64,000 nucleotides of DNA from Ardenticatenales bacterium (GTDB taxonomy: Bacteria > Chloroflexota > Anaerolineae > Epilineales > Epilineaceae), in NCBI GenBank assembly GCA_020853525.1, contig JADYYS010000050.1, positions 18,672-82,671 on the forward strand. Reading direction: 5' to 3'. Below the pieces are notes generated by a model. It did not search any database and was not told where the DNA came from. It saw only the letters and a list, made by a program, of their open reading frames with translations. This document shows, one piece after another, positions 7,080 to 61,568 of this stretch. The position numbers and the translations under genes are program-made. Every line of letters starts with the position of its first letter. The first letter of the stretch is position 1.

Positions 7080-7088
7080 GCCGTGCCC

Positions 7089-44217: not shown

Positions 44218-44244
44218 CGGACGCGTCTTATTTTGGACCAATGC

Positions 44245-44256
44245 TTCATAGATGAA
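44245..44256. promoter_or_regulatory. Inverted repeat TTCATaGATGAA between marR and doxX. Candidate MarR operator.
   Basis: Seen in the sequence. A related TTCACCATATGAAG lies at the marR promoter. Confidence 0.3.
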
Positions 44257-44364
44257 AGGTCTAGCGGTCGAACTATACAGCCGCGAACAGCCCGCCCGTG
44301 CTCGATCCGCCGCCCGTTCTCCCGTGCTTCGTCACCCGCCCTTCTCACACCAAGGAGTCCACGA

Positions 44365-44892: not shown

Positions 44893-45025
44893 CGCGCCCT
44901 TCGAGACCACCGGAGTGTCGTGCGGCCGGCGACCTGCGCCGCGCCCGGTACATCCGGGGTGGGCGCATGCGATCACCGGGCGATCGGCACCGATTCCGAT
45001 CGCCCGGTGTTATGCTTGGCCTTGT

Positions 45026-45502: not shown

Positions 45503-46119
45503 GGATCGAACGGCGGGCGCGATGGAAGGCAGCCCGATTGTCGGCGCTGACCGTCGGCGCGGTGCTTGCCGCGGCCGCGTGCGCTTCGCCTGCCTTCCAC
45601 GGTGTCGAGGCCGATCCGCCGACGGCGGTGGCCGATGTTGGCCTGTCCAACGGCACAGGCCCGGCGTTCCGTCTGTCCGATCGGAAAGGCATGTGGGTCC
45701 TGCTGTTCTTCGGCTACACGAACTGTCCTGACGTCTGCCCGCTGACGCTGTCCCACATCGGGACGGTCCTGCGCGACCTCGGCCCGACGGCGAATCGCGT
45801 GGCCGTCGTGTTCGTGTCCGTCGACCCCGACCGGGACACGCCCGACCGGCTTGCCCAGTACGCGGCTTCGTTCGGCCCCCAGGTGATCGGCGTCACCGGC
45901 GAGCGGGCCGAGATCGATGCCGCCGTGGAGGCATTCGGCGCACGCTACGAACTCCACACGGACGAGGCCGCGACGTCCGCGGCCGGCTACAGCGTCAGCC
46001 ACTCGGGCGACATCTTCGTCATCGACCCCGAGCAGCGCCTGCGGCTGACGATTCCCTTCGGTGTGGCGCCCGACGCTATCCTCTCCGACCTGCGCCGGCT
46101 CATCGGTCCGTCCGGCTGA
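45499..46119 (+). CDS. SCO1/SenC-family thioredoxin-like copper chaperone.
   Basis: WVLLFFGYTNCPDVCP (CxxxC) and ...SHSGDIFVIDP (conserved His). Confidence 0.8.
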   Translation: MRIERRARWKAARLSALTVGAVLAAAACASPAFHGVEADPPTAVADVGLSNGTGPAFRLSDRKGMWVLLFFGYTNCPDVCPLTLSHIGTVLRDLGPTANRVAVVFVSVDPDRDTPDRLAQYAASFGPQVIGVTGERAEIDAAVEAFGARYELHTDEAATSAAGYSVSHSGDIFVIDPEQRLRLTIPFGVAPDAILSDLRRLIGPSG

Positions 46120-46160
46120 TCCGCACACACAGTCGCGCACACCACGTCCGCCCCGGTTCG

Positions 46161-46235
46161 TACAGCACCACTGTAGATTCTTGGGACTCTCCAATCTGGT
46201 CGCCGCCCAAGGCATGTTCAGTGGAGGTGTACTAG
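46161..46235. repeat. Third copy of the 75-bp palindromic repeat unit (2 mismatches against copy B at 1396-1470). Sits between the SCO and PCu(A)C genes.
   Basis: Direct comparison of the sequences. Confidence 0.75.
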
Positions 46236-46272
46236 TGGTTCCAACCCCGTCACCCAAGGAGACCGTGATCCG

Positions 46273-46773
46273 ATGTCGAACCGAACGTTGCTCACCCTCG
46301 GCACCCTGACGATCCTCGCCCTCACTGCGGCAGCCTGCGGCGGTGGGTCCACGGACGCGCCATCGGCGGGCGAGAGCGCCGCCAACGCCACGGCGCCGGT
46401 AGGCGACAGCGCCGGCATCACCACCGCCGATGTCTGGGCGCGCAAGTCACCGATGGCGGCGACGATGGGCGCCGTGTACCTACGGATCGACAATCACGGC
46501 GCCGTGGACGATGCGCTGATCGGCGCCGCCGCGGCGGTCGCCCACACGGTCGAGATCCACGAGACCACGAACGAGGGCGGCGTCATGAGCATGGCCAAAG
46601 TGGACGCCATCCCCGTGCCCGCCGGCGGCTCGGCCGAACTGAAGCCCGGCGGGTACCACGTCATGCTCATCGACGTCACCGCGCCGCTGAAGCTGGGGGA
46701 GCGCTTTCCGGTTACGCTGCAGTTCGAGAAGGCGGGCATGATCACGGTCGAGGCCGAGGTACGGGAGGAGTAG
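46273..46773 (+). CDS. PCu(A)C (DUF461) periplasmic copper chaperone, lipoprotein.
   Basis: Lipobox LTAAACG. H(x)nM motif AHTVEIHETTNEGGVMSM...GGYHVML. Confidence 0.8.
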   Translation: MSNRTLLTLGTLTILALTAAACGGGSTDAPSAGESAANATAPVGDSAGITTADVWARKSPMAATMGAVYLRIDNHGAVDDALIGAAAAVAHTVEIHETTNEGGVMSMAKVDAIPVPAGGSAELKPGGYHVMLIDVTAPLKLGERFPVTLQFEKAGMITVEAEVREE

Positions 46774-46919: not shown

Positions 46920-47519
46920 CTATGCCTCGCCCGCCTCGGCCGAGAGCGCATCAGCCAACGCGAGATACCGGTCCTGCGATCCGTCGCACGCCTCGGTTTG
47001 CGCAATGTCCTCGAATGCGGCGGCCACCCGCGCCTGGGCAGCAGGATCGATGACTTGTCGAGCCATGGGAAAGAGCACATGGTCCTCCTTGGCGATGTGC
47101 GATCGCAGCAAGGCCACGTAGTCTCTTGCACACCCCACCAGCTCGGCGCGCACGGTCGCATCGCCCGCGTCCATCGCACGGGCAGCCTCCCGCAGCGCAC
47201 GGATCAGCGATCGTCCCTCATCGTGCTCGTGCAGCATGACGGACACCGGGCCGCCGGCCGGAACGCCGGCGGCCGTGATCGCCGGGAACAGGACATGCTC
47301 CTCCTTGAGGTGGTGGCAGCCATCGGCAAATCCCGCCGCGAAGTCGGCACAGTCCGCGAAGAACCGCGCTGGAACCGGTTCGCCGCGATCCATGCGATCC
47401 GCCGCCAGCGCCAGGGCGTCCAGCACCCGTTCGATCACGCGGTGATCCTGCATGAGCCCGTCGGTAATGTCCACGCACCCCTCCTGTCCAAGATTGTTCT
47501 CGACGGCCGATAACCACAT
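46920..47519 (-). CDS. Hemerythrin-like (HHE cation-binding) domain protein. Last gene of the long minus-strand array.
   Basis: Repeated H...E/HHLKEEH and HIAKEDHVLFP pairs. Confidence 0.7.
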   Translation of the reverse strand: MWLSAVENNLGQEGCVDITDGLMQDHRVIERVLDALALAADRMDRGEPVPARFFADCADFAAGFADGCHHLKEEHVLFPAITAAGVPAGGPVSVMLHEHDEGRSLIRALREAARAMDAGDATVRAELVGCARDYVALLRSHIAKEDHVLFPMARQVIDPAAQARVAAAFEDIAQTEACDGSQDRYLALADALSAEAGEA

Positions 47520-47534: not shown

Positions 47535-48587
47535 TTAGTTCTGCCGCCCCGGGGTCAGCGCTCCGTTTGCGCCTGCCCGGGCGGGAACCTGGCGCAGCGC
47601 ATGTTGGAGCGCCCGCTCCGTAAACACACGGGCGACCTGGCGTCGATAGCCGGGCGGCAGATCCACGTTGTCCATTGGACGAATCGCGCGGTGGACGGCG
47701 TCGGCAGCAGCCGACAGCCGTTCCGCGGTTGGCACATGACCGGTCAGTATGACCTCGGCCTCCGCGATCCGCAGCGGCCGCGATGCCACCGCTCCGACGA
47801 CCACCCGTGCGTTCTCGCATTCGTCCTTGGCCATCCGTAGCGCAACGGCCACACCAAGTGACGGGAAATCGAACGATGCCCGCGGGCGCAGCTTCATGTA
47901 GCTGGCACACACGCCCGTCGGCCGCAGCAGCTGCACGTCCACCACGATCTCACCGGCGCTGAGTGTCAGATGCGACAACCCGTCGTCGCGGTAGAGTGCT
48001 TCGGCCGGGATCACGCGTTCCCCACGCGGTCCGGCGATCCGGATCTGAGCATCGAGGGCGATCATCGCCGGCGCAAGATCCGACGACACGGCCGCCCAAC
48101 ATCGGTCATCCCCCGGCGCAACGCGGCAGACGTCGCCGGTGCACTTGAGGCAATCGCCGGCGGCTTCGCGCCACAGCGGTGAGCGGTTCACATACGTGCA
48201 TCGCGTGTCGAGGCAGAGATTCCCGCCCAACGTACCCATCGAGCGCAGTGTCGGCGTGGCGATAAGGCTGGCCGCGTGCCCGATCACCGGGAAGTGCCGC
48301 CGGAGCACTGGCTGCCTTGTCAGCTCGGCAATGGACGTCAGCGCGCCAAGCGTCAACCCGGAGCCGTCGCGTACTGTGGCTTCCGCGGCGGTCCGAATAC
48401 CGGACAGCTCAGGTACACCCGCCAGGGCAACCAAGTAGCGGGGGCTGAGCTGGCCGCGCTTCAGCAGTGGCAGCAAGTCGGTGCCGCCGGCGAGGAGCTG
48501 CGCCTCGGCGCCAAGTTCAGCCAGCAGCCCGACCGCCTCCGACAGGCTGCGCGGCGCGAGATAGCGGAAGGAGGGCAGGTGCAACAC
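47535..48587 (-). CDS. FAD-binding (medium) subunit of a molybdenum hydroxylase, with an inserted Cys-rich loop (candidate [4Fe-4S] site as in 4-hydroxybenzoyl-CoA reductase HcrB).
   Basis: FAD motifs LLAGGTDLLPL and GTLGGNL. Insert LCLDTRCTYVNRSPLWREAAGDCLKCTGDVCRVAPGDDRCW carrying 6 Cys. Four of them are spaced 16/8/9 apart. Confidence 0.8.
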   Translation of the reverse strand: MLHLPSFRYLAPRSLSEAVGLLAELGAEAQLLAGGTDLLPLLKRGQLSPRYLVALAGVPELSGIRTAAEATVRDGSGLTLGALTSIAELTRQPVLRRHFPVIGHAASLIATPTLRSMGTLGGNLCLDTRCTYVNRSPLWREAAGDCLKCTGDVCRVAPGDDRCWAAVSSDLAPAMIALDAQIRIAGPRGERVIPAEALYRDDGLSHLTLSAGEIVVDVQLLRPTGVCASYMKLRPRASFDFPSLGVAVALRMAKDECENARVVVGAVASRPLRIAEAEVILTGHVPTAERLSAAADAVHRAIRPMDNVDLPPGYRRQVARVFTERALQHALRQVPARAGANGALTPGRQN

Positions 48588-48596: not shown

Positions 48597-50993
48597 CTAG
48601 AGCTGAGGCGCGCCGGCCGGCGGCTCGACGACCGTTAGAGGCGGGTACGCGATGTCGGGGAACCGGCGAGGACCGTGACGGGCCGGCTGCCCGCGGGCCT
48701 GGCGATCGAGCGCGCGCAGAACTTTGTCGGGCGTGATCGGCACCTCGTCCACGCGCACCCCAACCGCATCGTAGACCGCATTGGCCACGGCCGGTGGCAC
48801 CGGCAGCAGCGGTCCCTGGCCCACCTCCTTCGCCCCGAACGGACCCTCTCGGTCGTCCGTTTCCACCAACAGGCAGTGCACGATCGGCATGTCCAGGGCA
48901 GTGGGCGTCTTGTAGTCCAGAGCGGTTGGGCCGGCATGCAGCGGACCGCGGAACGACTGCTCCTCCCACAGCGCCTCTCCAAGACCCATGTATACCCCGC
49001 CTTCGATCTGTCCCTCCACCTGCGTCGGGTTGAGCGCCCGACCGCCGTCGTGGGCCAGCCAGACTTCAGACGGCACCACCTGGCCCGTTTCTGCGTCGAC
49101 GTTCACATGCACCACGCACGCCGAGTAGCTGTAGGCAGGGCTCGGGCCCACACCGGCCCCCTTGTAGGGTCCGGCCAGCGGCGGCGGCGCATAGGTGCCG
49201 CTGGCGGCCAGCACGGCCCCGGATGCCTGGGTCAGCTGCAGCGCATCCGGCCACGACATGATCGGTGATCGCTCATCGCGGAGCGCGACTTGGCCGGAGT
49301 GCAGGATCAGACGGTGGGTCGGCAGGTGCAACTCGCGACCCACCGCGCACAGTACTTGTTCGCGCAGATTCTCGGCGGCGCGCAGCGCGGCATTGCCCAT
49401 CATGAACGTGACCCGACTCGAGTAGCTGCCCAGATCCACGGCCGCCAACGCCGTATCGGCCGTATCAAGCTGGATATCGACCAAGTCGAGACCGAGAACC
49501 TCAGCGACGAGGCTGGCCAGCACCGAGTCCGAGCCCTGGCCGATATCGGTGGCGCCGCAGGCCACGTGAACGGTGCCGGTGCGGTCCGCCTGGATGTGGA
49601 CGGTGGTGTGTGGCAGCCCGTTCCAGTAGATCGGCAGGGCGGCACCCGATAGGTAGCAGCTGGCAGCCAACCCAACGCCTTCGCCCCGAGGCAGCCGGCG
49701 GTGCTTGTCCAGAAAGCCCGAGGCATCCGCGACCCGCTCCAAGCACGCGCGGAGACCACAGCTCGTGACCCGCAGGTGGTTCACCGTCACGCTGTCTTCG
49801 GCAACAAGGTTCTTCAGCCGAATCGCCAATGGGTCGAGCCCAAGGTCCTCGGCCAACTTGTCCAGGAGCACCTCCAGCCCGAATCGCGGCTGGGGCGTGC
49901 CGTGACCGCGCTTCGGGCCGCACGGTGGCTTGTTCGTGAACACCCGCGCGCCCTCGAAACGATATGCCGGCAGGCGATAGGTGGCCGGCGGCAGGGCGCC
50001 ACTGTAGTACGTGGACGCTACCCCGTAACTGCCATATGCTCCACCGTCCAACACCGTGCGTACGTGCAGACCGGTGAGCGTGCCGTCGACACGCGCGGCT
50101 GCGCGCAGCTGCACGTGCATCGGGTGTCGGCCGCGGTGGCTGTAGAAGACCTCCTCGCGGGAAAGTCGGCACTTCACCGGCCGGCCGGTGATCATGGCAA
50201 GCCGGGCCGCGGCCACCTCGTGCGGCAGCGCCTCGGTCTTGCCGCCGAAGCCGCCACCGATGACCGAAGCGACCACCCGCACCCGGCGCTCGGGTAGTTG
50301 GAGGGCCTTGGCCAACGCCCGCTGGACGTAGTGCGGGGTTTGGGTGGACGACCATAGCGTCAGCCGCCCGTCCGGGCTGTACTCGGCCACGGCCGCATGC
50401 TCCTCCAGCGCCAGATGGTTGCTGCCGCCATAGAAGAACAGATCCTCGCGCACATGGGCCGCCGCTTCGAACGCAGCCTCCACTGCACCGAACTCCAGCG
50501 CAACGCGCTTGTGGACGTTGTTGGCCTTGCCGTTGGCGTGGATCGGATCACCCGTGGCCGACAAGGCCTCGTCAACCGTCATGCAGGCCGTGAGCACGTC
50601 GTAGTCGACGACGATCAACCCCATGGCGTGGTCGGCCGTCTCCTCATCCTCTGCAGCAATGGCCGCCACCGGATCGCCGACGAAGCGCACCTTGTCCACA
50701 GCGAGACCGTGCTCGTCCTGGCTGACGGGTAGAATGCCGTACGGCACCGGAAGGTCCGCACCGCTGATCACGGCCGTCACCCCAGGCACGGCCAACGCAC
50801 GGGTCGCGTCGATGGCTCGGATGCGCGCGTGCGCATGCGGACTGCGCAGCAGTCGGGCATAGAGGAGATGGGCGAAGGGCAGATCGTCCGCGTAGTTTGC
50901 CCGGCCCGTCACCTTGGGCCAAGCATCCACCTTCGAACGACGGTGGCCGATGATCGTGAAGTCCGGAGTCCGCGTCGAGCCGGTCGAGCTCAT
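48597..50993 (-). CDS. Molybdopterin-binding large subunit of the xanthine-dehydrogenase / CoxL / HcrA family.
   Basis: MSSTGSTRTPDFTIIGHRRSKVDAWPKVTGRANYADD...GGGFGGK...; it lacks the form-I CODH VAYRCSFR motif. Its ATGA start overlaps the small-subunit stop. Confidence 0.85.
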   Translation of the reverse strand: MSSTGSTRTPDFTIIGHRRSKVDAWPKVTGRANYADDLPFAHLLYARLLRSPHAHARIRAIDATRALAVPGVTAVISGADLPVPYGILPVSQDEHGLAVDKVRFVGDPVAAIAAEDEETADHAMGLIVVDYDVLTACMTVDEALSATGDPIHANGKANNVHKRVALEFGAVEAAFEAAAHVREDLFFYGGSNHLALEEHAAVAEYSPDGRLTLWSSTQTPHYVQRALAKALQLPERRVRVVASVIGGGFGGKTEALPHEVAAARLAMITGRPVKCRLSREEVFYSHRGRHPMHVQLRAAARVDGTLTGLHVRTVLDGGAYGSYGVASTYYSGALPPATYRLPAYRFEGARVFTNKPPCGPKRGHGTPQPRFGLEVLLDKLAEDLGLDPLAIRLKNLVAEDSVTVNHLRVTSCGLRACLERVADASGFLDKHRRLPRGEGVGLAASCYLSGAALPIYWNGLPHTTVHIQADRTGTVHVACGATDIGQGSDSVLASLVAEVLGLDLVDIQLDTADTALAAVDLGSYSSRVTFMMGNAALRAAENLREQVLCAVGRELHLPTHRLILHSGQVALRDERSPIMSWPDALQLTQASGAVLAASGTYAPPPLAGPYKGAGVGPSPAYSYSACVVHVNVDAETGQVVPSEVWLAHDGGRALNPTQVEGQIEGGVYMGLGEALWEEQSFRGPLHAGPTALDYKTPTALDMPIVHCLLVETDDREGPFGAKEVGQGPLLPVPPAVANAVYDAVGVRVDEVPITPDKVLRALDRQARGQPARHGPRRFPDIAYPPLTVVEPPAGAPQL

Positions 50994-51559
50994 CCCTGCG
51001 CCCCACTGCGCGGGTGCGATGCGCCACCCGCGACCATACGAGCAGCCTGCCGCACGGCTGCGACGATGCTGGCATAGCCTGTACATCGGCAGAGATTGCC
51101 GGCTAGCGCAGCGCGAACTTCGGCTTCGGTTGGATCGGCATTGTCGGCCAACAAGGCGGCGGCGGTAAGCAGCATTCCGCCGGTACAGTAGCCGCACTGG
51201 GCAGCACCGCGGTCGACGAAGGCCACCTGCAACGGGTGGGGCTCCGCCGTGGTACCCAACCCTTCCACCGTGGTGACGGTACGTCCCTCGACGGAGGCAA
51301 GGAGCGTAAGACATCCCAGCCGCGGCTGACCATCCACCAGCACGGTGCAGGCACCGCACTCACCCAACTCACAGCCATGCTTGGTGCCGGTCAGGCCTAG
51401 GTCCTCGCGCAGCGCCTCGAGCAACGTGCGGTGCGCCGGCGCACGCAGCATGCGCGGCACCCCATTTACGGTCATGTCGACGGTGAGCCACCGATCGCCT
51501 GGAGCAGAGTCGTCGACCTGCAGAGCGGGTGGCACGGTTGCCACGATCGTGGACTTCAT
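50990..51559 (-). CDS. [2Fe-2S]-binding small subunit (CoxS/HcrC-like) of the molybdenum hydroxylase.
   Basis: CELGECGACTV and QCGYCTGGM...CRCTGY. Confidence 0.85.
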   Translation of the reverse strand: MKSTIVATVPPALQVDDSAPGDRWLTVDMTVNGVPRMLRAPAHRTLLEALREDLGLTGTKHGCELGECGACTVLVDGQPRLGCLTLLASVEGRTVTTVEGLGTTAEPHPLQVAFVDRGAAQCGYCTGGMLLTAAALLADNADPTEAEVRAALAGNLCRCTGYASIVAAVRQAARMVAGGASHPRSGAQG

Positions 51560-52677
51560 CCCGCTTCCCCTGACGCTGTCGTCGCCGGCCGGCGCGTGGC
51601 CCGAATCTGCTCGACCACCAAGTCGCCGGCAGCCGTGGTGGCGAGCCCGCTGTCGCTGTCGACGGATGGAATGCGCCGGCTCACCAGACAGCGCTCGATC
51701 GCACCCTCGATGATCGCCGCTCCATCCTTTTCTCCCAGGTAGTCCAGCATCATGCCGACCGCGGCGATCGCACCCAGAGGGCTGGCCACGTTCTGGCCCG
51801 CGATCGTCGGTGCCGAGCCATGAATGGGCTCGAACATCGCGGTGCGGCCCGGGTGGATGTTGCCCGAGGCGGCGATCCCCATGCCGCCCTGCAGCGCCGC
51901 CCCGAGATCCGTGACGATATCGCCGAAGAGATTCGTCGTGACGATCACATCGAACATCTCGGGCGTCTTGACCATGTACATGCAGCAGGCATCCACGTAC
52001 GCGTGATCCGTGTGCACGTCGGGGAATGCCTCAGCCACCTCGGCAAACACCCGCGTCCAGATGGACTGCGGCCGGATGGCATTGGCCTTGTCCACCAACG
52101 TCACCTGCGGTTGTCGGCCGCCCATGCCGCGCGCCCGCGCGCGCTCTCGAGCCAGCTCGAAGGCATAGCGGATCACGCGTTCGGTGCCCTTGTGCGTGTA
52201 GACGCCCGAAACGATCGCCACCTCATCGGCGGTGCCAACCTTCAGGTGGCCACCGATCTGCGCATAGACATCCTCGGTGTTCTCACGGACCACCACGAAG
52301 TCGATATCACCCACGCGCTTGCCCTTCAACGGGCACAGGTGCTCCGCCAGCAATCGGACCGGCCGCAGGTTGACGTACAGGTCCATGCCGAATCGGAGGC
52401 TGAGGATCACCGAGCGCTCCACCAGGCCGGGTTCGACCGCGGGGTGACCGATCGCGCCGAGTAGCACGGCGTCCAGCGTGCGCCACTCGTCCACGATCCG
52501 CTCTGTCACGAGCTCGCCCGTAGCCAGGTAGTGCGCGCCGCTGTATGGATACTCGAACAGCTGGTAATGAAAGCCCGTCACTTCAGCTGCTGCGGCGAGC
52601 GCCTTCAGGCCTTCCCTGGTCACCTCGGGACCGATGCCGTCCCCGGGGATCACGCCGATCCGGTAGCCCGTCCTCAC
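51556..52677 (-). CDS. Isopropylmalate / homoisocitrate / tartrate dehydrogenase family (beta-decarboxylating dehydrogenase).
   Basis: IGVIPGDGIGPEV, NLFGDIVTDLGAAL...GGMGIAASGN. Confidence 0.85.
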   Translation of the reverse strand: MRTGYRIGVIPGDGIGPEVTREGLKALAAAAEVTGFHYQLFEYPYSGAHYLATGELVTERIVDEWRTLDAVLLGAIGHPAVEPGLVERSVILSLRFGMDLYVNLRPVRLLAEHLCPLKGKRVGDIDFVVVRENTEDVYAQIGGHLKVGTADEVAIVSGVYTHKGTERVIRYAFELARERARARGMGGRQPQVTLVDKANAIRPQSIWTRVFAEVAEAFPDVHTDHAYVDACCMYMVKTPEMFDVIVTTNLFGDIVTDLGAALQGGMGIAASGNIHPGRTAMFEPIHGSAPTIAGQNVASPLGAIAAVGMMLDYLGEKDGAAIIEGAIERCLVSRRIPSVDSDSGLATTAAGDLVVEQIRATRRPATTASGEAG

Positions 52678-53885
52678 GGTGCCTCCGGGCCGGCGATGGC
52701 GGCGTGCTTTGCGGCGGCCGGGGCGTGCGCGCCGGCTCCTGCCAGGAGGCCCCGGGCGATGACCAATCGCTGTATCTGAGCCGTACCCTCATAGATCTGC
52801 ATGATCTTGGCGTCGCGCATCCACTTTTCAACAGGGTACTCTCTGGAGTAGCCATAGCCGCCCAGCACTTGAACAGCATCCGTCGTGACGCGCATGGCGA
52901 CGTCGGCCGCAAAGGCCTTCGCCATGCTGCTCTCGGTCGTATGCGACAGGCCTTGATCGGCCAGCCAGGCAGCGCGCCAAGCCAAGAGTCGAGCCGCCTC
53001 GATGCTGGTCGCCATGTCCGCCAGAAGGGTGCCGATCGCCTGAAACTGACCGATGGGTCGCCCAAATTGACGCCGCTCACCCGCGTACTGGCAGGCGAAC
53101 TCAAAGGCGGCGCGAGCGATCCCCACTGCTCCGGCAGCGATCTGGGCACGGGTACGATCCAGCGTGCGCATTGCGATCCGAAAACCGTCCGCCTCCCCGC
53201 CCAATCGATTGGCCGCCGGAACCCGAACGTCCTCGAGGTACAGCGACGCCGTGTGCGATGCGCGGATGCCCAGCTTGCGTTCGCCTCGACCGGCGGTCAG
53301 CCCGGCGCGGTCGCCGTCCACGATGAATGCGGCGATCCCGTCCGCCCCACGGCCGGGTGCAACGGTGGCAAACAGGACATAGGTGTCGGCAATACCGCCA
53401 TTGGTGATGAAGCACTTGCTGCCGTTGAGCACGTATTCCGCGCCATCGCGCCGCGCCGTCGTGGTCAGGGCGGAAGCATCGGAGCCGGCGGCCGGCTCGG
53501 TCAAGGCGAAGGCGCCCAACCGAACTGCGCGCGGGTCGCAGAAGCGCGGTATGTAGCGTTCCTTTTGCTCCGGTGTGCCTGACAGTAGGATGGGCGTTGC
53601 CGCCAGCAGCGTGCCCCCCAGCACCGTGGCCACGCCGGCACAGCCCCAGTACAGCTCCTCGTCGACGACGCAACGGCCGAACACATCCGCCACTCCGCCG
53701 CCGCCATATGCCTCAGGCAGAGCATACGCGGTGAGCCCGACCTCGGCCGCCTGCCGGAGCACCTCCCAGGGCACGGTTTCTTCCTCGTCGAAGCGCGGCG
53801 CCCCCGGACGGATCACCTCGAGCGCAAACCGGTGCGCCAAGCTGCGCAGGGCGCGGTGCTCATCGGATAGGGCGAACCCGATCAT
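52674..53885 (-). CDS. Acyl-CoA dehydrogenase, embedded inside the chain-elongation module.
   Basis: GAFALTEPAAGSDA, YVLNGSKCFITNG, QVLGGYGYSREYPVEKWMRDAKIMQIYEGT. Confidence 0.85.
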   Translation of the reverse strand: MIGFALSDEHRALRSLAHRFALEVIRPGAPRFDEEETVPWEVLRQAAEVGLTAYALPEAYGGGGVADVFGRCVVDEELYWGCAGVATVLGGTLLAATPILLSGTPEQKERYIPRFCDPRAVRLGAFALTEPAAGSDASALTTTARRDGAEYVLNGSKCFITNGGIADTYVLFATVAPGRGADGIAAFIVDGDRAGLTAGRGERKLGIRASHTASLYLEDVRVPAANRLGGEADGFRIAMRTLDRTRAQIAAGAVGIARAAFEFACQYAGERRQFGRPIGQFQAIGTLLADMATSIEAARLLAWRAAWLADQGLSHTTESSMAKAFAADVAMRVTTDAVQVLGGYGYSREYPVEKWMRDAKIMQIYEGTAQIQRLVIARGLLAGAGAHAPAAAKHAAIAGPEAP

Positions 53886-54396
53886 TCGTGCGCCGCCAGG
53901 CGCGCTTGGACATAGCTGTGCAGTCCACCCAGCGCCATGAGCTGAAGCAGAAACTCCGGGAACGGCTCGGCCTGGTATGTCGCGCCGGTCGTCAGGTCGT
54001 GGATCACGCCGCTGGCTGGTTCGATGGCCACGGTGTCGCCGTCGGCGATGGCGGTGGCAGCAGCCGGGCACTCGAAGATGGGCAAGCCCAGATTGATGGC
54101 GTTGCGGAAGAAGATTCGGGCGAACGACACCGCCACGACGCCGGCGACTCCGGATGCCTGCAGCGCGATGGGTGCCACCTCCCGGGAGCTTCCACACCCA
54201 AAGTTGATGCCGGCTACAACGATATCGCCCGGCGCCACGCGACCGGCGAACGACGGATCGGCATCTTCCATGCAGTGCTCGGCGAGGCGGGCCGGATCAG
54301 CGGTGTTGCAGTGTCGCGCCGGAATGATGGCGTCGGTGTCGATATGGTCACCGAACTTCCAAGCCCGGCCCTGCAGTCTACCCAGCGGCTTAGCCA
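53882..54396 (-). CDS. Aconitase-family small subunit (LeuD / homoaconitase small subunit-like).
   Basis: MAKPLGRLQGRAWKFGDHIDTDAIIPARH...GINFGCGSSREVAPIAL. Confidence 0.8.
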
Positions 54397-55712
54397 TGAG
54401 CGACCTCGCCGGCTCCAGACAGTGCCGCGACGCCCCAGTCGTCCGATTCGGCAATACCGAGCTCCGTCGGTGATGAAATGTGGCCGGAGATGGCAGATGC
54501 TGCCGCCACCGCCGGGCTGGCCAGGTAGACCTCACTTTGAATGTGACCCATGCGTCCCCGAAAGTTGCGATTGCTGGTGGACACGCAGCGCTCGCCGGAG
54601 GCCAGCACGCCCATGTGCCCGCCAAGACAGGGTCCGCAGGTCGGAGTGCTGACAACGCACTCCGCCTCGATGAACGTCTCGACGAGCCCCTCCCGAACCG
54701 CCGCCAAGTACACGGCCTGGCTACCAGGGATGATGATCGTGCGCACCCGCGGATGGGTCTTACGCCCCTTCAGCACATGAGCCGCCTGGCGAAGGTCGGC
54801 CAGGTTGCCGTTGGTGCACATGCCGATCACCACCTGATGGATGTCGATGTCGCCCATGCCCGCCGCATCCTGCGTGTTCTCGGGCAGGAACGGAGCGGCC
54901 ACCTGCGGCTCCAAGTCGCTCACATCCCACTCATACACGGCGGCATAATCGGCATCCGGGTCGCTCGTGAACAAGCGGTCGGTACGGCCGCCGGCACGAC
55001 GCACGAACTCAGTGGTCGTGGCGTCCGGTGCGATCAGGCCGGTCTTGGCTCCGGCCTCGATCGCCATGTTGGCCATGGTCAATCGCCCGGCCATGTCCAA
55101 TCCCTCGATCACCTCCCCCGCAAACTCCAGCGCTTGGTACCGCGCGCCGTCCACCCCGATCCGACCGATGGCGTACAAGGCAAGGTCCTTGCCACTGACC
55201 CACGGCCGAAGCCGGCCCCGGAAGATGATCTTGGTCGATGGCGGCACCTTCAGCCATATCTCACCCAATGCCATGGCGGCGGCGGCATCGGTGGATCCAA
55301 CACCGGTGCCGAACGCACCCAACGCACCGTACGTACACGTGTGCGAGTCCGCACCGGCCACAATGTCGCCCGGCGAAACCAGCCCCTGCTCGGGTAGCAG
55401 GACGTGCTGGATACCGACGCGCCCCACGTCGTAGTACCGAATACCGGTGCGCAGGGCGAACTCCCGGCATTCGCGCACGATCTCGGCGGAGTCAATGTCC
55501 TTATTGGGCGTGAAGTGGTCGAAGACAAACACGACCTTGCGAGGGTCGAATATCCGAGCGTTCGCGAAGCGTTCGAACTCACGCAGCGCCACGATACCCG
55601 ATAGCTCGCTTGCCAGCACGAGATCCACCCGCGCGTTGATGAACTCTCCTGGCCGCACCGTTTCGCGGTCGCAATGGGCAGCCAATATCTTCTCGGCAAT
55701 CGTCTGGCCCAC
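54390..55712 (-). CDS. Aconitase-family large subunit (LeuC / homoaconitase large subunit-like, short ~430-aa type).
   Basis: MGQTIAEKILAAHC...GADSHTCTYGALGAFGTGVG...CGPCLG...NRNFRGRMG. Confidence 0.85.
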   Translation of the reverse strand: MGQTIAEKILAAHCDRETVRPGEFINARVDLVLASELSGIVALREFERFANARIFDPRKVVFVFDHFTPNKDIDSAEIVRECREFALRTGIRYYDVGRVGIQHVLLPEQGLVSPGDIVAGADSHTCTYGALGAFGTGVGSTDAAAAMALGEIWLKVPPSTKIIFRGRLRPWVSGKDLALYAIGRIGVDGARYQALEFAGEVIEGLDMAGRLTMANMAIEAGAKTGLIAPDATTTEFVRRAGGRTDRLFTSDPDADYAAVYEWDVSDLEPQVAAPFLPENTQDAAGMGDIDIHQVVIGMCTNGNLADLRQAAHVLKGRKTHPRVRTIIIPGSQAVYLAAVREGLVETFIEAECVVSTPTCGPCLGGHMGVLASGERCVSTSNRNFRGRMGHIQSEVYLASPAVAAASAISGHISSPTELGIAESDDWGVAALSGAGEVAHG

Positions 55713-57032
55713 TTACTCCTCCCACGCGAACGAGAATGCATAGTCGGTAGAAACCACCGTTTCGGCGACACCGTGGCGGCGGCGCATGACCCGGATCATG
55801 CGCATCAACTCATCCTCCTGAAGCAGCGTATCCGAGCGTTTGGCGGCGGTCAGAATCTTCTCGAAGTACGCCTCCTCCAGCTCGATGCCACGGCTTTCGA
55901 GCCAGTACCGGACGTTGTGCTCGCCGCTCATCGGACCGATCTCGATCCCGTGCTCGCGGCCAACCAGGCTGGCGGGTACACCGCAATAGACCCGCTCGGC
56001 CAGCCAAGCGTCGCCAAGCAGATTGGCCTTGGCGACGGCCGCCGCATGAACGCCGGTCGACGTTCGGAAGGCGTCAGCCCCCACCACCGGGTAGTTGAAG
56101 GGAATGGGAACCGCGCAGGCTTCCGAGGCCACATGACAGTACTCCGGTAGGGCCGTCAGGTTCCGGTCGCCGATTCCAAGCAAGCTGAGGTTGGCCAGGA
56201 GGATCTCCATCGGCGTATTCCCCGAGCGCTCGCCAATGCCCAGCGCGCAGGCGTGCACCCGGCTGGCGCCGGCCTGAATGGCCGCCAGTGAATTGGCGAC
56301 ATCAAGCCCGCGATCCCGGTGGCCGTGAAAGTCGATCGATACCGGGGCACCCGTGTCTGCGACGACCTCCCGGACGAACGAGACAAGTGCGTGCACGCCC
56401 TCGGGCATGGCGTGGCCGACCGTATCGGCAACGCACACCGCGTGCGCACCGCACTCGATAGCGGTGGTGTACAGCCGGCGCAACACCTCGGGCGCGGCAC
56501 GGGTGGTATCCTCGGTGACAAACGTGACGGGGAGTCCATGCGTGACCGCAAACGTGACCGCCGACTGCGTGAGCCGGGAGAGCTGATCGAGGTCCCAGCC
56601 CTCTACCACTTGTCGGATCGGGCTGGAACCCAAGAAGATCGCAGCCTCAATCGGTATGCCGGCGGCCTGGCTGGCGTCGACGATCGGCCGGATGTCCGCT
56701 TCCAGGGTGCGGGCTGCCGCCTGCGCCCGGATGCTGAGCCCCTGATTTGCGATCTCGCGCGCCAGTACGATGACATCCCGGTGGAAGCGTTCGCCTGCAC
56801 CTGGCAGCCCAAGGTCGGCGATATCGATGCCCAACTCATCCATGAGGTAGAGCAGGTACACCTTCTCCTGGATCTGGGGCTGGCGTACGGACGGCGATTG
56901 CAGTCCGTCCCGCAACGTCTCATCCGACAGGGCGACGTTGACCGGCCACTGCAGCAGCGTGCCGGTGCCGTTCCAATCATGAATCAGGTCGTGATGTGAT
57001 GGGTGGCTCATCGCTAAACTCCTTGGGGGCAT
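55713..57032 (-). CDS. 2-isopropylmalate / homocitrate / citramalate synthase family enzyme (HMGL-like TIM barrel, short form without the LeuA regulatory domain).
   Basis: LSDETLRDGLQ and HGHRDRGLDVANSLAAIQAGASRVHACALGIGERSGN. The start may be at 57011. Confidence 0.8.
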   Translation of the reverse strand: MPPRSLAMSHPSHHDLIHDWNGTGTLLQWPVNVALSDETLRDGLQSPSVRQPQIQEKVYLLYLMDELGIDIADLGLPGAGERFHRDVIVLAREIANQGLSIRAQAAARTLEADIRPIVDASQAAGIPIEAAIFLGSSPIRQVVEGWDLDQLSRLTQSAVTFAVTHGLPVTFVTEDTTRAAPEVLRRLYTTAIECGAHAVCVADTVGHAMPEGVHALVSFVREVVADTGAPVSIDFHGHRDRGLDVANSLAAIQAGASRVHACALGIGERSGNTPMEILLANLSLLGIGDRNLTALPEYCHVASEACAVPIPFNYPVVGADAFRTSTGVHAAAVAKANLLGDAWLAERVYCGVPASLVGREHGIEIGPMSGEHNVRYWLESRGIELEEAYFEKILTAAKRSDTLLQEDELMRMIRVMRRRHGVAETVVSTDYAFSFAWEE

Positions 57033-57068: not shown

Positions 57069-58154
57069 CTACGAGGGCAACGGCGATTGCCCGTGGCCGG
57101 ACCCGGCCACCAGCCGAGCGGGCAGCGCCGCCGACCCTGCTCCTTCGACGAGGAATGCAACGACGATGCCGTATAAGGCAAGATGCCCGAGCAGCTCCGA
57201 TCCGAAGATGGTCGCTGTCGTGGCGAACAGCAGCGTGAGAACGACGGCCAGCGGTCCCACCAACACGCCGAGGGTGAGCGCAACGCCGACTCCGATCTCC
57301 ACCAATCCAGCCCCGAAAACGTATAACTCACGGGTCACCCAAGACCCCAGCACCGTCCGCACTGGCTCGAAAATGACATCGGCATGGTTGTCGACCACAC
57401 CCATCGCCAACTCCGGATGGATCCACTTTTCGTTGAGCCCGTAGTAGATCAGGCTCAGACCGAGCGCGATCCGGATCATGGCGATGGACTGCGAGCCGGT
57501 GAGCCACCGCGGTCGGAGCCAGCCGTCCGTCCACGCGGATCGACCCATGCGGCGAGCGAGCCAGTGCTCCAGATGCCACCGGGGCCGCCCGCGGACGATG
57601 ACGAAGAGTGCCAGCGGAATGTAGATGAGATAGTCGACCAAGTCCGTTGCCGGGAACCACGCGAACGACAGACCGAACAAGCCGATGACACCCCACGCTG
57701 CCGGTCCGACGCCCAGCCCAACCACCAGCATGGTGCCAAGCACGGCCTCAGCTGCCTGCACGGCCGGCGGCACGGACAGCTCCCGTCCCCAGGCTGTACC
57801 GGTCGCCGCCATGGCCAGCAGCGTCGTACCCAACCCAAGCTCCACGGCCACGGGCGTCCAGTCCATGAGCCGGCCGCGGACAGCGGCCGCGGACTGGCCC
57901 ACACCGCGGGTGCGAGCCATCTTGTCGACGACAACTCCGATGGCCAGCAGGAGTATGGCCGTCACGCCGAGCCCAACGTTGACGCGGTTGAGGGTGGTGA
58001 ACAAGGCCGGATCAAACGGGTCAACCGGTGTGTGTGGAACCCACTTGCTGTGGGCCTCGGCAGTCCGCGAACCAGCCACCAGCGCCACCGAGACCGCGCC
58101 CATGACGCCCGCAAGGCGGACGAGGGAGGGACGACACGCAACTCCGGCCTTCAT
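57069..58154 (-). CDS. Polytopic membrane protein of unknown family, between iorB and the synthase.
   Basis: Signal-like N-terminus and at least 8 hydrophobic helices. Its stop overlaps the iorB start. Confidence 0.5.
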   Translation of the reverse strand: MKAGVACRPSLVRLAGVMGAVSVALVAGSRTAEAHSKWVPHTPVDPFDPALFTTLNRVNVGLGVTAILLLAIGVVVDKMARTRGVGQSAAAVRGRLMDWTPVAVELGLGTTLLAMAATGTAWGRELSVPPAVQAAEAVLGTMLVVGLGVGPAAWGVIGLFGLSFAWFPATDLVDYLIYIPLALFVIVRGRPRWHLEHWLARRMGRSAWTDGWLRPRWLTGSQSIAMIRIALGLSLIYYGLNEKWIHPELAMGVVDNHADVIFEPVRTVLGSWVTRELYVFGAGLVEIGVGVALTLGVLVGPLAVVLTLLFATTATIFGSELLGHLALYGIVVAFLVEGAGSAALPARLVAGSGHGQSPLPS

Positions 58155-58825
58155 AAGACACCCCCGCTGTCTGGCTGGGTGGCGGCACGCATCGCCGGTT
58201 CCCGCCCCAGCGATCCTCCAAGTGCGACCCCCAAGGAAAAGGCACGGCGGTTCAACTCCAGGAAGCGCTCAGGCACCAGCTTCGTCAGGAGATCGGACCA
58301 AAGGTCAACCGGAATGGGAAGGTGGGTGGACAGGAGCCCCAGTACCAGCACGTTCGCCACGCGGCCATTTCCTAACTCTCGCTCCGCGAGGTCGGTCGCC
58401 GGCACCTCGATCACACGCAGCCCATGGCTGCGCAGGACGCTCACCGCATCGTGGGGGTAGCGGGACACGGCGTCCGAGCCGGCGGAGACGGGTGGGATCT
58501 CGTGCGCATTGACAACGATCGCCCCGCCAGGTCGCAGGAAGTGTGCGAACCGCACAGCCTCCAACTTCTCCATCCCGACCACCAGGTCAGCCTGGCCAAC
58601 AGGGATGAGGGGCGAGTGCACTTGGGTTCCGAAGCGGACGTGGCTATGGACGCTGCCGCCCCGCTGTGAGACGCCATGCACTTCCGTCTGGGTGGCATCG
58701 TGACCGGCGGCGATCGCCGCGCGTGCGATGACCTCGCTGACCAAGAGCACTCCCTGACCACCGACACCGGAAACCAGCACGCTGGTGATCGTCGGTTCGG
58801 TCGCATTCGGCACGGCAGTCATCGT
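58151..58825 (-). CDS. iorB: Indolepyruvate:ferredoxin oxidoreductase beta subunit.
   Basis: MTAVPNATEPTITSVLVSGVGGQGVLLVSEVIARAA is the pyruvate/ketoisovalerate oxidoreductase gamma-type domain. Confidence 0.8.
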   Translation of the reverse strand, partial: TMTAVPNATEPTITSVLVSGVGGQGVLLVSEVIARAAIAAGHDATQTEVHGVSQRGGSVHSHVRFGTQVHSPLIPVGQADLVVGMEKLEAVRFAHFLRPGGAIVVNAHEIPPVSAGSDAVSRYPHDAVSVLRSHGLRVIEVPATDLAERELGNGRVANVLVLGLLSTHLPIPVDLWSDLLTKLVPERFLELNRRAFSLGVALGGSLGREPAMRAATQPDSGGVL

Positions 58826-60609
58826 TCTCCACCGTCCGCCGGGTCTGGCATGGACGGTACGGCGTGGCCGTTGCCGACGAGCGGCAGGATGGCATCGTAG
58901 CGGCACAATTGCTGACAGACGGTGCAAGTCACACAGGCGGCGGCATCGATCGTCGGCAATCCGTGCGGTCCCGAAGTAATGGCCGGACACTGGATGCGGT
59001 AGCAGGCGTTGCATTCGGTGCACAGGCTCTCGTCCACCACCAGCGGTTCGAGATCGCGGGCGCGCATCTCGGGTAGCAGCTGACAGGGACCGCGAATGAT
59101 CGCCACGGATGGTCCATCATGGGCCAGCGCGGAGAGCACCGCCCGACGAATGGCGGACCGGTCCCATGTATCCACGACCACGACGTCCTTCACTCCAACA
59201 GCCCTGACCAATGCCTCAAGGTCCAGAACTGGGGCATCGACGCCGGCCATGTCGTAGCCGGCGACTGGGTTGGGCTGTTGGCCAGTCATACCGGTCGTAC
59301 CGTTATCCAGGATCAGTAGCGTGATCGGCGTTCGGGTGTAGACAGCATCGATCAGACTGGGAATGCCCGTGTGAAGAAAGGTCGAATCGCCGATGACTGC
59401 CACGCTCCGCTTCACACCGGCACGAAGGAGGCCGATGGCGTTGCCGATACTGGCGCCCATGCAGAACGTCAGGTGTTCGGCCTCGTAGGGCGGCAGCGCC
59501 CCCATCGTGTAACAGCCGATGTCGCCGGCCACGGTCACCCTCAATTGGCCCAGAGCATCGAATACCGTCCGGTGACCACAGCCGACACAGAACATCGGCG
59601 GACGGGAAGGCGCCGGTATGGACGTATTGAGGGCTCGCGCGAACACACGCCCATCGATCGCCTCGGCCAAGCGCTCGGGGCTATACTCGCCACAGATGCC
59701 GAACAGGTCCTTTCCGATGATGTTGGTAGCTCCCGCAGCCCGCAGCTGCTCCTCGATGAACGGGTCGCCCTCCTCGACCACGTACACCGTTTCGTGGTCA
59801 CGACAGAAGGACAGCAGTCCTACCAGCGGTAGCGGGTACGTGAGTCCCAAGTCGAAGTAGTCGGCCTCGGGCAGTACCTCGCGGGCATAGGCACGCGAGA
59901 TGCCGTTGGCGACGACCCCGATTGGTCGGCCGGTCACCGACACCCGATTGAATGGCGTCGTCTCGGCATAGATCGCCAAGCGGCCCAGTCGATCCTCCAG
60001 AAGCGGCCGCAGCTGCCGACCGTAGATGGGAACCGAGAATCGCCTTGGATCGGGGTCGAACGCCACCGGCGGCACCTCGCGGCGCCCGCCCGTCGAGACG
60101 CGCCCCTTGCAGTGTGCGGTACGCGTCGTCGTCCGAACCATCACCGGCGTACCAAACGCCTCGCTCAACTCGAAGGCCTGCCGCATGAACTCGAGGCACT
60201 CCTGCGGCGTACCTGGTTCGACGATGGGCACCCGTGCCATTCGGGCGAGATAGCGGTTGTCTTGCTCGTTTTGGGAGGAGTGCATGCCAGGGTCGTCCGC
60301 TGAGACGACCACGAAACCGCCGTTCGTTCCGGAATAGGGAAAGACCATGAACGGATCGGCTGCCACATTGAGGCCGACGTGCTTCATGGTCACGAGCGCC
60401 CGCCCGCCGGCAACAGCGAAGCCGATGCCCTCCTCGAAGGCCACCTTCTCATTTGTTGACCAATGGGTGTCCACCTCGGGGTAGCCCACCAGGGACTCGA
60501 GTATCTCGGTGCTGGGGGTACCGGGGTAACCGGTCGCGTAGCGCACACCCGCCTCCCACGCTCCACGCGCCAGCGCTTCGTTTCCACTCAAGAAGTCACG
60601 CATGCCCAT
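58819..60609 (-). CDS. iorA: Indolepyruvate:ferredoxin oxidoreductase alpha subunit (TPP + 2x[4Fe-4S]).
   Basis: MGMRDFLSGNEALARGAWEAGVRYATGYPGTPSTEILE, ...GDSTFLHTG..., the ferredoxin motifs CTECNACYRIQCP and CVTCTVCQQLC. Confidence 0.85.
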   Translation of the reverse strand: MGMRDFLSGNEALARGAWEAGVRYATGYPGTPSTEILESLVGYPEVDTHWSTNEKVAFEEGIGFAVAGGRALVTMKHVGLNVAADPFMVFPYSGTNGGFVVVSADDPGMHSSQNEQDNRYLARMARVPIVEPGTPQECLEFMRQAFELSEAFGTPVMVRTTTRTAHCKGRVSTGGRREVPPVAFDPDPRRFSVPIYGRQLRPLLEDRLGRLAIYAETTPFNRVSVTGRPIGVVANGISRAYAREVLPEADYFDLGLTYPLPLVGLLSFCRDHETVYVVEEGDPFIEEQLRAAGATNIIGKDLFGICGEYSPERLAEAIDGRVFARALNTSIPAPSRPPMFCVGCGHRTVFDALGQLRVTVAGDIGCYTMGALPPYEAEHLTFCMGASIGNAIGLLRAGVKRSVAVIGDSTFLHTGIPSLIDAVYTRTPITLLILDNGTTGMTGQQPNPVAGYDMAGVDAPVLDLEALVRAVGVKDVVVVDTWDRSAIRRAVLSALAHDGPSVAIIRGPCQLLPEMRARDLEPLVVDESLCTECNACYRIQCPAITSGPHGLPTIDAAACVTCTVCQQLCRYDAILPLVGNGHAVPSMPDPADGGER

Positions 60610-60692: not shown

Positions 60693-61568
60693 TCACTGGC
60701 TCAGCCCCACGACGACACCGGTGTGCTCGGGCGCATCCATCAAGACGCGATCCACGAATGCACTCGCACTGGGGGTCAGCGCCTCGTGATAGCGCTGGAA
60801 GAGCGTGGTGGCACGGTGGCCAAGCCATCCTTCGGGGAGCAGATCGTTGGGTAGGTGAGGGTCAACGTAGGGGAAGGACAGGAAGCTGAGCGTAAGCTGG
60901 AAACGGCGGACGAACGCAGTCGACGCATCGCTGCCGCCGTCGCGGGGCTGGCCACTGCTGTTGCTCTCGAACTCGGATCCGAACTGGCGGATAAACGTCT
61001 CGTAGGCCGCGTTCAGCTGCTGGAGGTCCCAGGCCCGCGCCACGAGCTGATGCGGTTGTCCGAAGCCGTCATGTTGTGCGGTGAACAGGTCCACGTACTG
61101 CTGAGCGCCCACCGATTCGAGCCAGCCATGTAGCTCCCGAGGTGGCTCGTAGGGCGAGATCCAGGTGCCGGCACTGAGGTGCCCAAAGCCAAGCCACGTC
61201 AGGCGCTGACGCAGACGATCCCGCAATTGGTGGGTTCGCTCGGGGATCGTGTATGTCACCAGGTGCCAGCGCCCGTCCCAGGGCTCACGACGGGGTTGAA
61301 AGAGGTGCTGCGCACCCTCGTCCAGAATCCGGATGCCCTTGTCCGTCAGTCGATAGTAGCTGTGACGACCGGATCGGCGCCCGAGAAGCCACCCGCTTCG
61401 CGACATACGCGATAGGGTCGAGCGTACCGCCTGTGCGCTCAGTCCGAGTGGGGCGAGCAGGCTGATGAGGCTGCCGGTCCACACTTCATCCACTCGATGG
61501 CGCAAATGGTCACCGTAGAGCGTGAACACGAGCTGATGGCTCCGCTTGGAGGGCAATCTGCTTATCAT
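60693..61568 (-). CDS. paaX: PaaX-family transcriptional regulator (phenylacetyl-CoA-responsive repressor family).
   Basis: SKRSHQLVFTLYGDHLRHRVDEVWTGSLISLLAPLGLSAQAVRSTLSRMSRSGWL is the PaaX N-terminal wHTH. C-terminal PaaX_C-like region. Confidence 0.8.
   Translation of the reverse strand: MISRLPSKRSHQLVFTLYGDHLRHRVDEVWTGSLISLLAPLGLSAQAVRSTLSRMSRSGWLLGRRSGRHSYYRLTDKGIRILDEGAQHLFQPRREPWDGRWHLVTYTIPERTHQLRDRLRQRLTWLGFGHLSAGTWISPYEPPRELHGWLESVGAQQYVDLFTAQHDGFGQPHQLVARAWDLQQLNAAYETFIRQFGSEFESNSSGQPRDGGSDASTAFVRRFQLTLSFLSFPYVDPHLPNDLLPEGWLGHRATTLFQRYHEALTPSASAFVDRVLMDAPEHTGVVVGLSQ

Follow-up and report, generated by a model that had tools for sequence, protein, structure and literature searches.

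A divergent HcrCAB-type molybdenum enzyme with an HcrB-like cysteine loop, and the conserved gene cluster around it, in an Ardenticatenales bacterium

We analysed a stretch of 64,000 nucleotides (the window) from an Ardenticatenales bacterium of the phylum Chloroflexota (NCBI GenBank assembly GCA_020853525.1, contig JADYYS010000050.1, positions 18,672 to 82,671), in which three minus-strand genes encode a molybdenum (Mo) enzyme belonging to the xanthine oxidase family. The medium subunit of this enzyme, which has the flavin adenine dinucleotide (FAD) domain, carries a cysteine loop that is homologous to the extra iron-sulfur (Fe-S) site of 4-hydroxybenzoyl-coenzyme A (CoA) reductase (HBCR), represented by HcrCAB of Thauera aromatica (PDB 1RM6/1SB3). 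Taken with the surrounding genes, this suggests that the trio probably encodes a Mo-cofactor/FAD/Fe-S enzyme of the HcrCAB type that reductively dehydroxylates a hydroxyaryl-CoA and, with somewhat less confidence, that 4-hydroxybenzoyl-CoA specifically is its substrate. The functional assignment is carried by gene context, as the loop is insufficient alone. The three genes and the insert, with lengths in amino acids (aa), are:

47535..48587, minus strand: medium FAD subunit, HcrB-like, 350 aa, GTG start; Pfam FAD_binding_5 and CO_deh_flav_C
48096..48218, minus strand: 41-residue insert of the medium subunit, from the translation, with putative [4Fe-4S] ligands C130/C146/C154/C163, plus C125 and C149
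48597..50993, minus strand: large molybdopterin subunit, HcrA-like, 798 aa; Pfam Ald_Xan_dh_C, MoCoBD_1 and MoCoBD_2
50990..51559, minus strand: small subunit with two [2Fe-2S] domains, HcrC-like, 189 aa; Pfam Fer2 and Fer2_2

The minus strand at 48096-48218 encodes exactly LCLDTRCTYVNRSPLWREAAGDCLKCTGDVCRVAPGDDRCW, whose six cysteines are residues 125, 130, 146, 149, 154 and 163 of the medium subunit. A preliminary description of this DNA had drawn attention to the second, third, fifth and sixth of these, and their separations of 16, 8 and 9 residues are exact in the translation. The FAD_binding_5 match spans 215 residues of the protein on a Pfam profile of 170 positions, so the FAD domain carries an insertion. 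In a phmmer search the top PDB match of the medium subunit was Thauera HcrB (1RM6_B, E = 2.7e-59), aligned in a single stretch that runs without a gap through the insert. By 1RM6_B chain numbering the HcrB cysteines in this region are 117, 122, 138, 146 and 155, and C122/C138/C146/C155 correspond one-to-one to C130/C146/C154/C163 of the window protein. The numbering and spacing that the preliminary description had given for HcrB thus fit the chain, and its claim that the two loops are homologous holds, with all four cysteines kept. HcrB has a 41-residue insert at the same site of its FAD subunit with the four cysteines identically spaced, and the flanks of the two proteins are alike (GNLCxDTRC...WR...C.K..GD.C.V....RC).

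The exact pattern C-x15-C-x7-C-x8-C occurs in 118 of the 120 closest database proteins, and C130, C146, C154 and C163 are invariant across an alignment of 38 homologues; the loop is therefore homologous to that of HcrB, and chance is excluded. Canonical subunits had been predicted to lack it. CutM, CoxM, QorM, NdhF and KdhM gave PDB matches by phmmer in two stretches only, breaking at and skipping query residues ~126-172, and a CoxM-like protein was gapped at the insert position in a multiple alignment. These proteins and XdhB share the FAD_binding_5 plus CO_deh_flav_C fold with the window subunit, whereas the insert is wholly missing from them. A scan of genome contigs with peptides from the single protein returned distant CoxM-like loci only (L005-L011 in our numbering of loci).

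Judging from the sequence, C130, C146, C154 and C163 most likely hold a [4Fe-4S] cluster in the 41-residue insert. The corresponding residues of HcrB, C122/C138/C146/C155, are reportedly the [4Fe-4S] ligands of the Thauera enzyme (Unciuleac et al. 2004). An additional [4Fe-4S] cluster is named in the title of the 2004 paper on the HBCR structure. The loop of the window protein differs from that of HcrB in one further cysteine, C149 (48141-48143, minus strand), which creates a C-L-K-C-x4-C motif. Only the four closest homologues (P0001-P0004) have this extra cysteine; the residue is Tyr in HcrB, and Lys or His in most of the clade.

The other two subunits also resemble HcrCAB. The genes are arranged on the minus strand in the order small, large, medium (51559-50990, 50993-48597 and 48587-47535), as noted in the preliminary description, and this is also the order of hcrCAB. 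The stop codon of the small-subunit gene overlaps the start of the large-subunit gene. Pfam domains of the three open reading frames, together with PDB matches spanning each subunit, give the heterotrimeric architecture of xanthine-oxidase-family enzymes, and the number of subunits and the domain set are those of the Thauera enzyme, which is the best sequence match for each window subunit. The large subunit matches 1RM6_A best (E = 1.1e-185, residues 7-765): its 622 bits compare with 272 for the PDB family that comes next, and on the NCBIfam model TIGR03194 it scores 824 bits against 535 for the next model. The alignment to 1RM6_A shows that the family-wide catalytic Glu (GAKE) and Gln (TQxP) are conserved. 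The NCBIfam HBCR models TIGR03193, TIGR03194 and TIGR03195 were the top models for the small, large and medium subunits, respectively, by wide margins. An AlphaFold2 (AF2) model of the medium subunit (predicted local distance difference test score, pLDDT, of 84) had 1rm6_B as its best Foldseek match (template modelling, TM, scores of 0.86/0.93).

The trio lies at the downstream end of a row of minus-strand genes that reaches the end of the window:

46920..47474, minus strand: hemerythrin-like di-iron protein, directly downstream of the medium subunit; Pfam Hemerythrin (E = 6.8e-25)
51556..52677, minus strand: LeuB-like 3-alkylmalate dehydrogenase; Pfam Iso_dh
52674..53885, minus strand: acyl-CoA dehydrogenase (ACAD) of the medium/short-chain type; Pfam ACAD N, M and C domains; gene boundaries taken from the calls in L003
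53882..54397, minus strand: LeuD-like isomerase small subunit; Pfam Aconitase_C; best PDB match 3VBA
54390..55712, minus strand: LeuC-like isomerase large subunit; Pfam Aconitase; TIGR02083 LEU2 at 611.3 bits (cut-off 610.65)
55713..57032, minus strand: LeuA/HphA-like 2-alkylmalate synthase, short, without a regulatory domain; Pfam HMGL-like
57069..58154, minus strand: 361-aa protein for which Pfam and NCBIfam gave no significant family (weak DoxX-like stretch, E = 0.002)
58151..58822, minus strand: IorB-like beta subunit of indolepyruvate:ferredoxin oxidoreductase (IOR); Pfam POR; top NCBIfam models are IOR beta models
58819..60609, minus strand: IorA-like alpha subunit of IOR; Pfam POR_N, TPP_enzyme_C and Fer4
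60693..61568, minus strand: PaaX-family (aryl-CoA-responsive) regulator; Pfam PaaX, PaaX_M and PaaX_C; at the same position in L024
61690..62880, minus strand: thiolase; Pfam Thiolase_N and Thiolase_C; collinear in L024 and L012
62896..63657, minus strand: short-chain dehydrogenase/reductase (SDR), candidate 3-hydroxyacyl-CoA dehydrogenase; Pfam adh_short; collinear in L024 and L012
63654..64000, minus strand: C-terminal part of a MaoC-type enoyl-CoA hydratase, its gene crossing the window end

Over 1186 bp, a contig from Logan (L017) matches the window at 100% identity and, as its continuation, runs 877 bp beyond position 64000. This contig completes the MaoC gene (159 aa), which is joined by genes for a 105-aa protein and for a BcrAD_BadFG ATPase, the latter represented by its C-terminus. 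A closely related locus, L024, whose medium subunit is 75% identical to that of the window, has the full cluster on one strand. It begins with two HGD-D genes, two BcrAD genes, the 105-aa protein, MaoC, SDR, thiolase and PaaX, and continues with IorA, IorB, the LeuA-like, LeuC-like and LeuD-like genes, ACAD, the LeuB-like gene, the small, large and medium subunits and hemerythrin. The window is collinear with L024 from MaoC through hemerythrin, plus the 361-aa gene, an extra between IorB and the synthase that is absent from this place in L001, L012 and L024. More distantly, L012 from a Chloroflexi CFX genome (53% identical) keeps the same block from IorAB to hemerythrin, followed by Rrf2, by genes that among NCBIfam models match Had, Oah, Dch, BcrC, BcrB and BcrA/BcrD best, and then by MaoC, SDR and thiolase. 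The window-type trio is thus linked to benzoyl-CoA reductase (BCR) genes, a trait shared with HcrCAB, with two HGD-D and two BcrAD genes in both the L024 and the L012 clusters tying it to the anaerobic benzoyl-CoA pathway. Because of this conserved cluster with class-I BCR, PaaX, IorAB and beta-oxidation genes, the reductase reading has independent backing in the lineage of the window.

By analogy with the Thauera enzyme, a low-potential ferredoxin would donate electrons to the loop [4Fe-4S] cluster, from which they would pass to FAD, to the two [2Fe-2S] clusters and finally to the Mo site, the reverse of the usual flow. The Mo site would then strip the para-hydroxyl of a hydroxyaryl-CoA as water, 4-hydroxybenzoyl-CoA most likely being converted to benzoyl-CoA, which the ATP-dependent class-I BCR from the head of the cluster could dearomatise. 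The reduced ferredoxin could plausibly come from IorAB, whose genes share the operon.

Downstream, the hemerythrin-like protein has weak matches to the DnrN, YtfE and RIC families of Fe-S repair proteins. All examined members of the window sub-clade (L003, L012, L014 and L024) have it at this place, and it was found in none of 38 loci of the wider clade. Conserved hemerythrin and the embedding in an operon with IorAB, Leu-like and ACAD genes set the window trio apart from HcrCAB. This protein could sense oxygen or nitric oxide, or could repair the clusters of an oxygen-sensitive enzyme.

We also observed that the protein between the last BcrAD gene and MaoC (105-118 aa) has no family match and is found at three loci (L017:444-761, L024:3743-4060 and L012:19413-19769). 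Its motifs AEGW..RFL, LGF, C-x2-C-x4-C and YTRR are conserved, and it is possible that it is an accessory of the reductase system.

Several observations weigh against assigning the window enzyme to HBCR. All three subunits fall below the equivalog cut-offs of the HBCR models: the small subunit scores 168.9 bits on TIGR03193 (cut-off 257.8), the large subunit 823.9 bits on TIGR03194 (994.55) and the medium subunit 283.7 bits on TIGR03195 (404.55). The medium subunit shares 38% and the large subunit 42% identity with its Thauera counterpart. In neighbour-joining trees, which carry no support values and include one characterised sequence, the Thauera proteins HcrB and HcrA both fall outside the entire window clade, which also holds all 119 metagenomic matches. 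The nearest group to the window comprises five relatives (P0002-P0006), and for the large subunit L001, L012 and L014. A large-subunit phylogeny had been named as a check in the preliminary description; it places Thauera HcrA as sister to the window clade and not within it. The window cluster has neither a 4-hydroxybenzoate-CoA ligase gene nor an obvious ferredoxin gene. In the AF2 model, the pLDDT drops to 43-58 over residues 130-165, where the loop is unreliable and its cysteine geometry cannot be checked; such low values are expected, because the loop folds around a cofactor that is missing from the model. Eight other clade members fall similarly under the HBCR cut-offs, and as the TIGR03194 scores of the tested members all lie at 789-899 bits, this model cannot tell them apart. 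Given that the Had-, Oah-, Dch- and Bcr-type genes of L012 are all under their equivalog cut-offs as well, the low HBCR scores look like lineage divergence rather than altered function.

The wider clade also limits what the loop can say. It is very large, mostly soil-derived and labelled 'HBCR' by the Joint Genome Institute (JGI). Among 38 of its metagenomic loci of at least 8 kb, we found no BCR, IOR, Had or Dch homologues, and 5 of the 38 had a gene of the benzoate-CoA ligase family. Because these loci are without BCR genes, the loop and family membership alone do not fix the reaction. Nor is the insert exclusive to reductive dehydroxylases, since PaoB, a subunit of the oxidising aldehyde oxidoreductase of E. 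coli, has a homologous cysteine insertion in our multiple alignment. The preliminary description had read aryl-CoA reductive dehydroxylation from the loop; gene context supports that reaction, and the loop by itself, in view of PaoB, the wide clade and the sub-cut-off scores, is no proof of it.

Context supports HBCR function in some sub-lineages only, and the clade is mostly uncharacterised. In L020, a more distant member whose aromatic neighbours we counted for the HBCR reading, an HBCR-like small/large/medium trio stands between a chorismate-lyase-like (Rv2949c-like) gene and a gene of the benzoate-CoA ligase family, all in a row (4473-10886). This row suggests a route from chorismate through 4-hydroxybenzoate and 4-hydroxybenzoyl-CoA to benzoyl-CoA. 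In L015 (618-10990), a TetR regulator is present and the trio directly follows genes for PaaA/PaaC-like and PaaD-like proteins, enoyl-CoA hydratase and aldehyde dehydrogenase, suggesting a link to an aerobic CoA-epoxidase pathway of the paa/box type. No aromatic genes were found near the HBCR-like trio at L018 or L019.

Against this background, the enzyme might be an HBCR-type reductase that acts on another hydroxyaryl-CoA of the pathway, such as 3-(4-hydroxyphenyl)propionyl-CoA, p-coumaroyl-CoA or 4-hydroxyphenylacetyl-CoA. Its sister-clade position, with 38-42% identity and scores under the equivalog cut-offs, is consistent with such a substrate. So is the operon, where the trio is packed translationally with IorAB, ACAD and the Leu-like genes and does not adjoin a gene for 4-hydroxybenzoate-CoA ligase, and the PaaA/PaaC-like epoxidase genes beside the L015 trio suggest arylacetyl-CoA chemistry in part of the family. 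In the accepted HBCR mechanism, however, the thioester carbonyl must be conjugated with the ring, para to the hydroxyl. 4-Hydroxybenzoyl-CoA suits that mechanism, as p-coumaroyl-CoA perhaps does, whereas the propionyl and acetyl thioesters, being saturated, do not, and the BCR genes of the cluster require an input of benzoyl-CoA. We consider these other substrates unlikely.

Slightly less probable still is an ordinary oxidative hydroxylase or dehydrogenase of a (hetero)aromatic acid or CoA ester, in which the extra cluster would be an exit wire, as in PaoABC. PaoABC is a periplasmic enzyme that oxidises aldehydes and does not act on CoA esters. The homologous insert in PaoB shows that an oxidising enzyme can carry such a loop. 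Most wider-clade members come from soil metagenomes and are without nearby anaerobic aromatic genes (L018 and L019 included), and the NCBIfam equivalog thresholds are not reached. Yet the cysteine spacing and flanks are of the HcrB and not the PaoB type. Like the window protein, PaoB (PDB 5G5G; 'FAD-binding Fe-S subunit' in its RefSeq annotation) has a four-cysteine insertion at the same position of the FAD domain, and its first, third and last cysteines align with HcrB C122, C138 and C155. Its pattern, however, is C-x12-C-x9-C-x18-C, which the window protein, with its HcrB spacing, does not have; one ligand is shifted upstream, there are indels of 3 and 2 residues, and identity to the window subunit is ~27%, with PaoC ~29% identical to the window large subunit. 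Moreover, among characterised large subunits HcrA is much the closest, and the window clade is joined to BCR, IOR and PaaX genes in three lineages. That the cysteine-rich insert is a chance or structural feature binding no cluster we regard as very improbable: the low AF2 confidence in the loop would allow it, but the four cysteines are invariant and match the positions in the solved HBCR structure without a gap.

The genes between IorAB and the Mo enzyme raise a separate question. The LeuA-like, LeuC-like, LeuD-like and LeuB-like genes lie there, with ACAD between the LeuD-like and LeuB-like genes, and this arrangement is kept in three lineages. The neighbouring oxidoreductase is of the IOR type, although its scores lie under the model cut-offs (IorA-like, TIGR03336 IOR_alpha, 605.4 bits against 650.9; IorB-like, for example, 216.8 bits against 237 on an IOR beta model). 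The LeuB-like protein exceeds the cut-off of the 3-isopropylmalate dehydrogenase model NF002898 (408.8 bits against 393), and its best PDB match is M. tuberculosis LeuB (1W0D); its substrate loop, ERSVILSLRF where that of LeuB is ERGLLLRLRF, is hydrophobic. The best PDB match of the LeuD-like protein (3VBA) is the small subunit of an isopropylmalate/citramalate isomerase. Its specificity loop, ARHCNTADP, is kept in L001 and L012 and differs from both ARYLVYT of isopropylmalate isomerase (IPMI) and GPYLRTT of homoaconitase, having neither the homoaconitase Arg nor the IPMI VY.

The synthase is the most divergent member, far under all cut-offs of the NCBIfam models for isopropylmalate synthase (IPMS), homocitrate synthase (HCS) and CimA, with low identity to solved HCS and IPMS structures (best match 124 bits). 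We compared it at five specificity positions (HphA A73, D157, A159, M186 and S242) taken from a 2026 study of HphA (PMC12961565). The signature is A/T/V/C/H in the window, A/D/A/M/S in HphA, H/R/T/S/H in HCS and L/E/S/N/E in IPMS. The gatekeeper Ala is that of HphA (Ala73), where HCS has His and IPMS Leu, and the carboxylate-binding Arg is missing in both the window synthase and HphA; the other four positions, T/V/C/H against D/A/M/S in HphA, match none of the three. The carboxylate-binding HCS residues His, Arg and Thr are missing from the synthase. Because the dehydrogenase, the LeuD-like loop and these synthase residues favour an uncharged bulky side chain, they lend support to a chain-elongation reading. 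Genes for the same three kinds of enzyme (LeuA-like synthase, LeuCD-like isomerase and LeuB-like dehydrogenase) also stand together in the HphA/HphCD/HphB pathway by which cyanobacteria homologate phenylalanine and tyrosine. The window genes, however, stand in a catabolic cluster with IorAB, ACAD, beta-oxidation and BCR genes and not beside a peptide synthetase.

We therefore tentatively propose an undescribed anaerobic route from tyrosine or phenylalanine to benzoyl-CoA in which the side chain would be lengthened by one carbon and then shortened, a scheme we hold with much less confidence than the reductase assignment itself. The LeuA/HphA-like synthase would join (4-hydroxy)phenylpyruvate and acetyl-CoA, and the LeuCD-like isomerase and LeuB-like dehydrogenase would yield 2-oxo-4-arylbutyrate, which IorAB could convert to 3-arylpropionyl-CoA with reduction of ferredoxin. 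The ACAD, MaoC, SDR and thiolase would beta-oxidise the arylpropionyl-CoA to (4-hydroxy)benzoyl-CoA and acetyl-CoA, after which the HBCR-type enzyme, with the ferredoxin reduced by IorAB, would take off the hydroxyl ahead of BCR. The top PDB matches of the ACAD are 1UKW (383 bits) and medium-chain acyl-CoA dehydrogenases (MCADs), and MCAD accepts 3-phenylpropionyl-CoA. We had also considered glutaryl-CoA dehydrogenase of the lower benzoyl-CoA pathway for this protein and rejected it, such structures scoring 181-251 bits against 383 for the MCAD-like match. Some caution is needed, as members of the synthase family with identities of at least 63% are very numerous in Anaerolineae, and L021 and L022 keep the IorA-IorB-synthase trio only, with Leu-like partners not nearby. 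In the literature searched, we found no description of a benzylmalate- or homologation-based catabolic route and no paper on furoyl-CoA dehydrogenase together with HBCR.

Two other roles for the Leu-like genes were weighed. They might be a Re-citrate synthase, aconitase and isocitrate dehydrogenase that feed a 2-oxoglutarate:ferredoxin oxidoreductase and so regenerate ferredoxin, the role that korAB has in Thauera. We disfavour this reading, as the dehydrogenase is of the LeuB type and its substrate loop is hydrophobic, the LeuD-like loop is without Arg, the synthase is without the carboxylate-binding His, Arg and Thr of HCS and the oxidoreductase is of the IOR type. A citramalate route from pyruvate through 2-oxobutyrate to propionyl-CoA was also considered, but the Ala at the gatekeeper position, a smaller residue than the Leu that IPMS has there, argues for a larger substrate rather than a smaller one.

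In L022 (1-21332), the IorA-IorB-synthase trio adjoins BCR-like, Dch-/Had-like and Amidohydro_2 genes and a gene for a tungsten-type aldehyde:ferredoxin oxidoreductase, and the same region has UbiD, UbiX and phosphoenolpyruvate (PEP)-utilising (phenylphosphate-synthase-like) genes. This looks like an anaerobic phenol/aromatic-acid island of another Chloroflexi metagenome-assembled genome (MAG).

Elsewhere in the window, unrelated genes at 43035-46773 (plus strand) for a LuxR-type response regulator, MarR, DoxX and a copper-chaperone pair (SCO1/SenC and PCuAC) mark the distal end of the operon. The G+C fraction is 0.55 at 32-34 kb against ~0.70 elsewhere, and an AbiEi-type antitoxin gene lies at 35276-35902; the region 32001-36000 may be a mobile or foreign segment. 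An ARAGORN call at 2508-2609 (plus strand), a 'tRNA-???' with a four-base anticodon, falls inside a long minus-strand open reading frame and is probably spurious.

These findings extend the HcrB-type [4Fe-4S] insertion, and probably the reverse-flow Mo-enzyme chemistry that goes with it, to Ardenticatenales and other Chloroflexota. The loop result itself is confirmatory, and the enzyme is a divergent addition to the known kind of HBCR. What merits follow-up is the conserved union with a 2-oxoacid elongation module, along with the clade-specific hemerythrin: a fixed arrangement of 20 genes unites BCR, an aryl-CoA regulator, an aromatic 2-oxoacid:ferredoxin oxidoreductase, the Leu-like elongation module, ACAD and the reductase. 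If the homologation proposal is true, this arrangement would be a new solution for the anaerobic catabolism of aromatic amino acids, one that puts 2-oxoacid elongation chemistry, hitherto known from biosynthesis, to catabolic use and bypasses the oxygen-independent alpha-oxidation of phenylacetyl-CoA found in Thauera and Aromatoleum.

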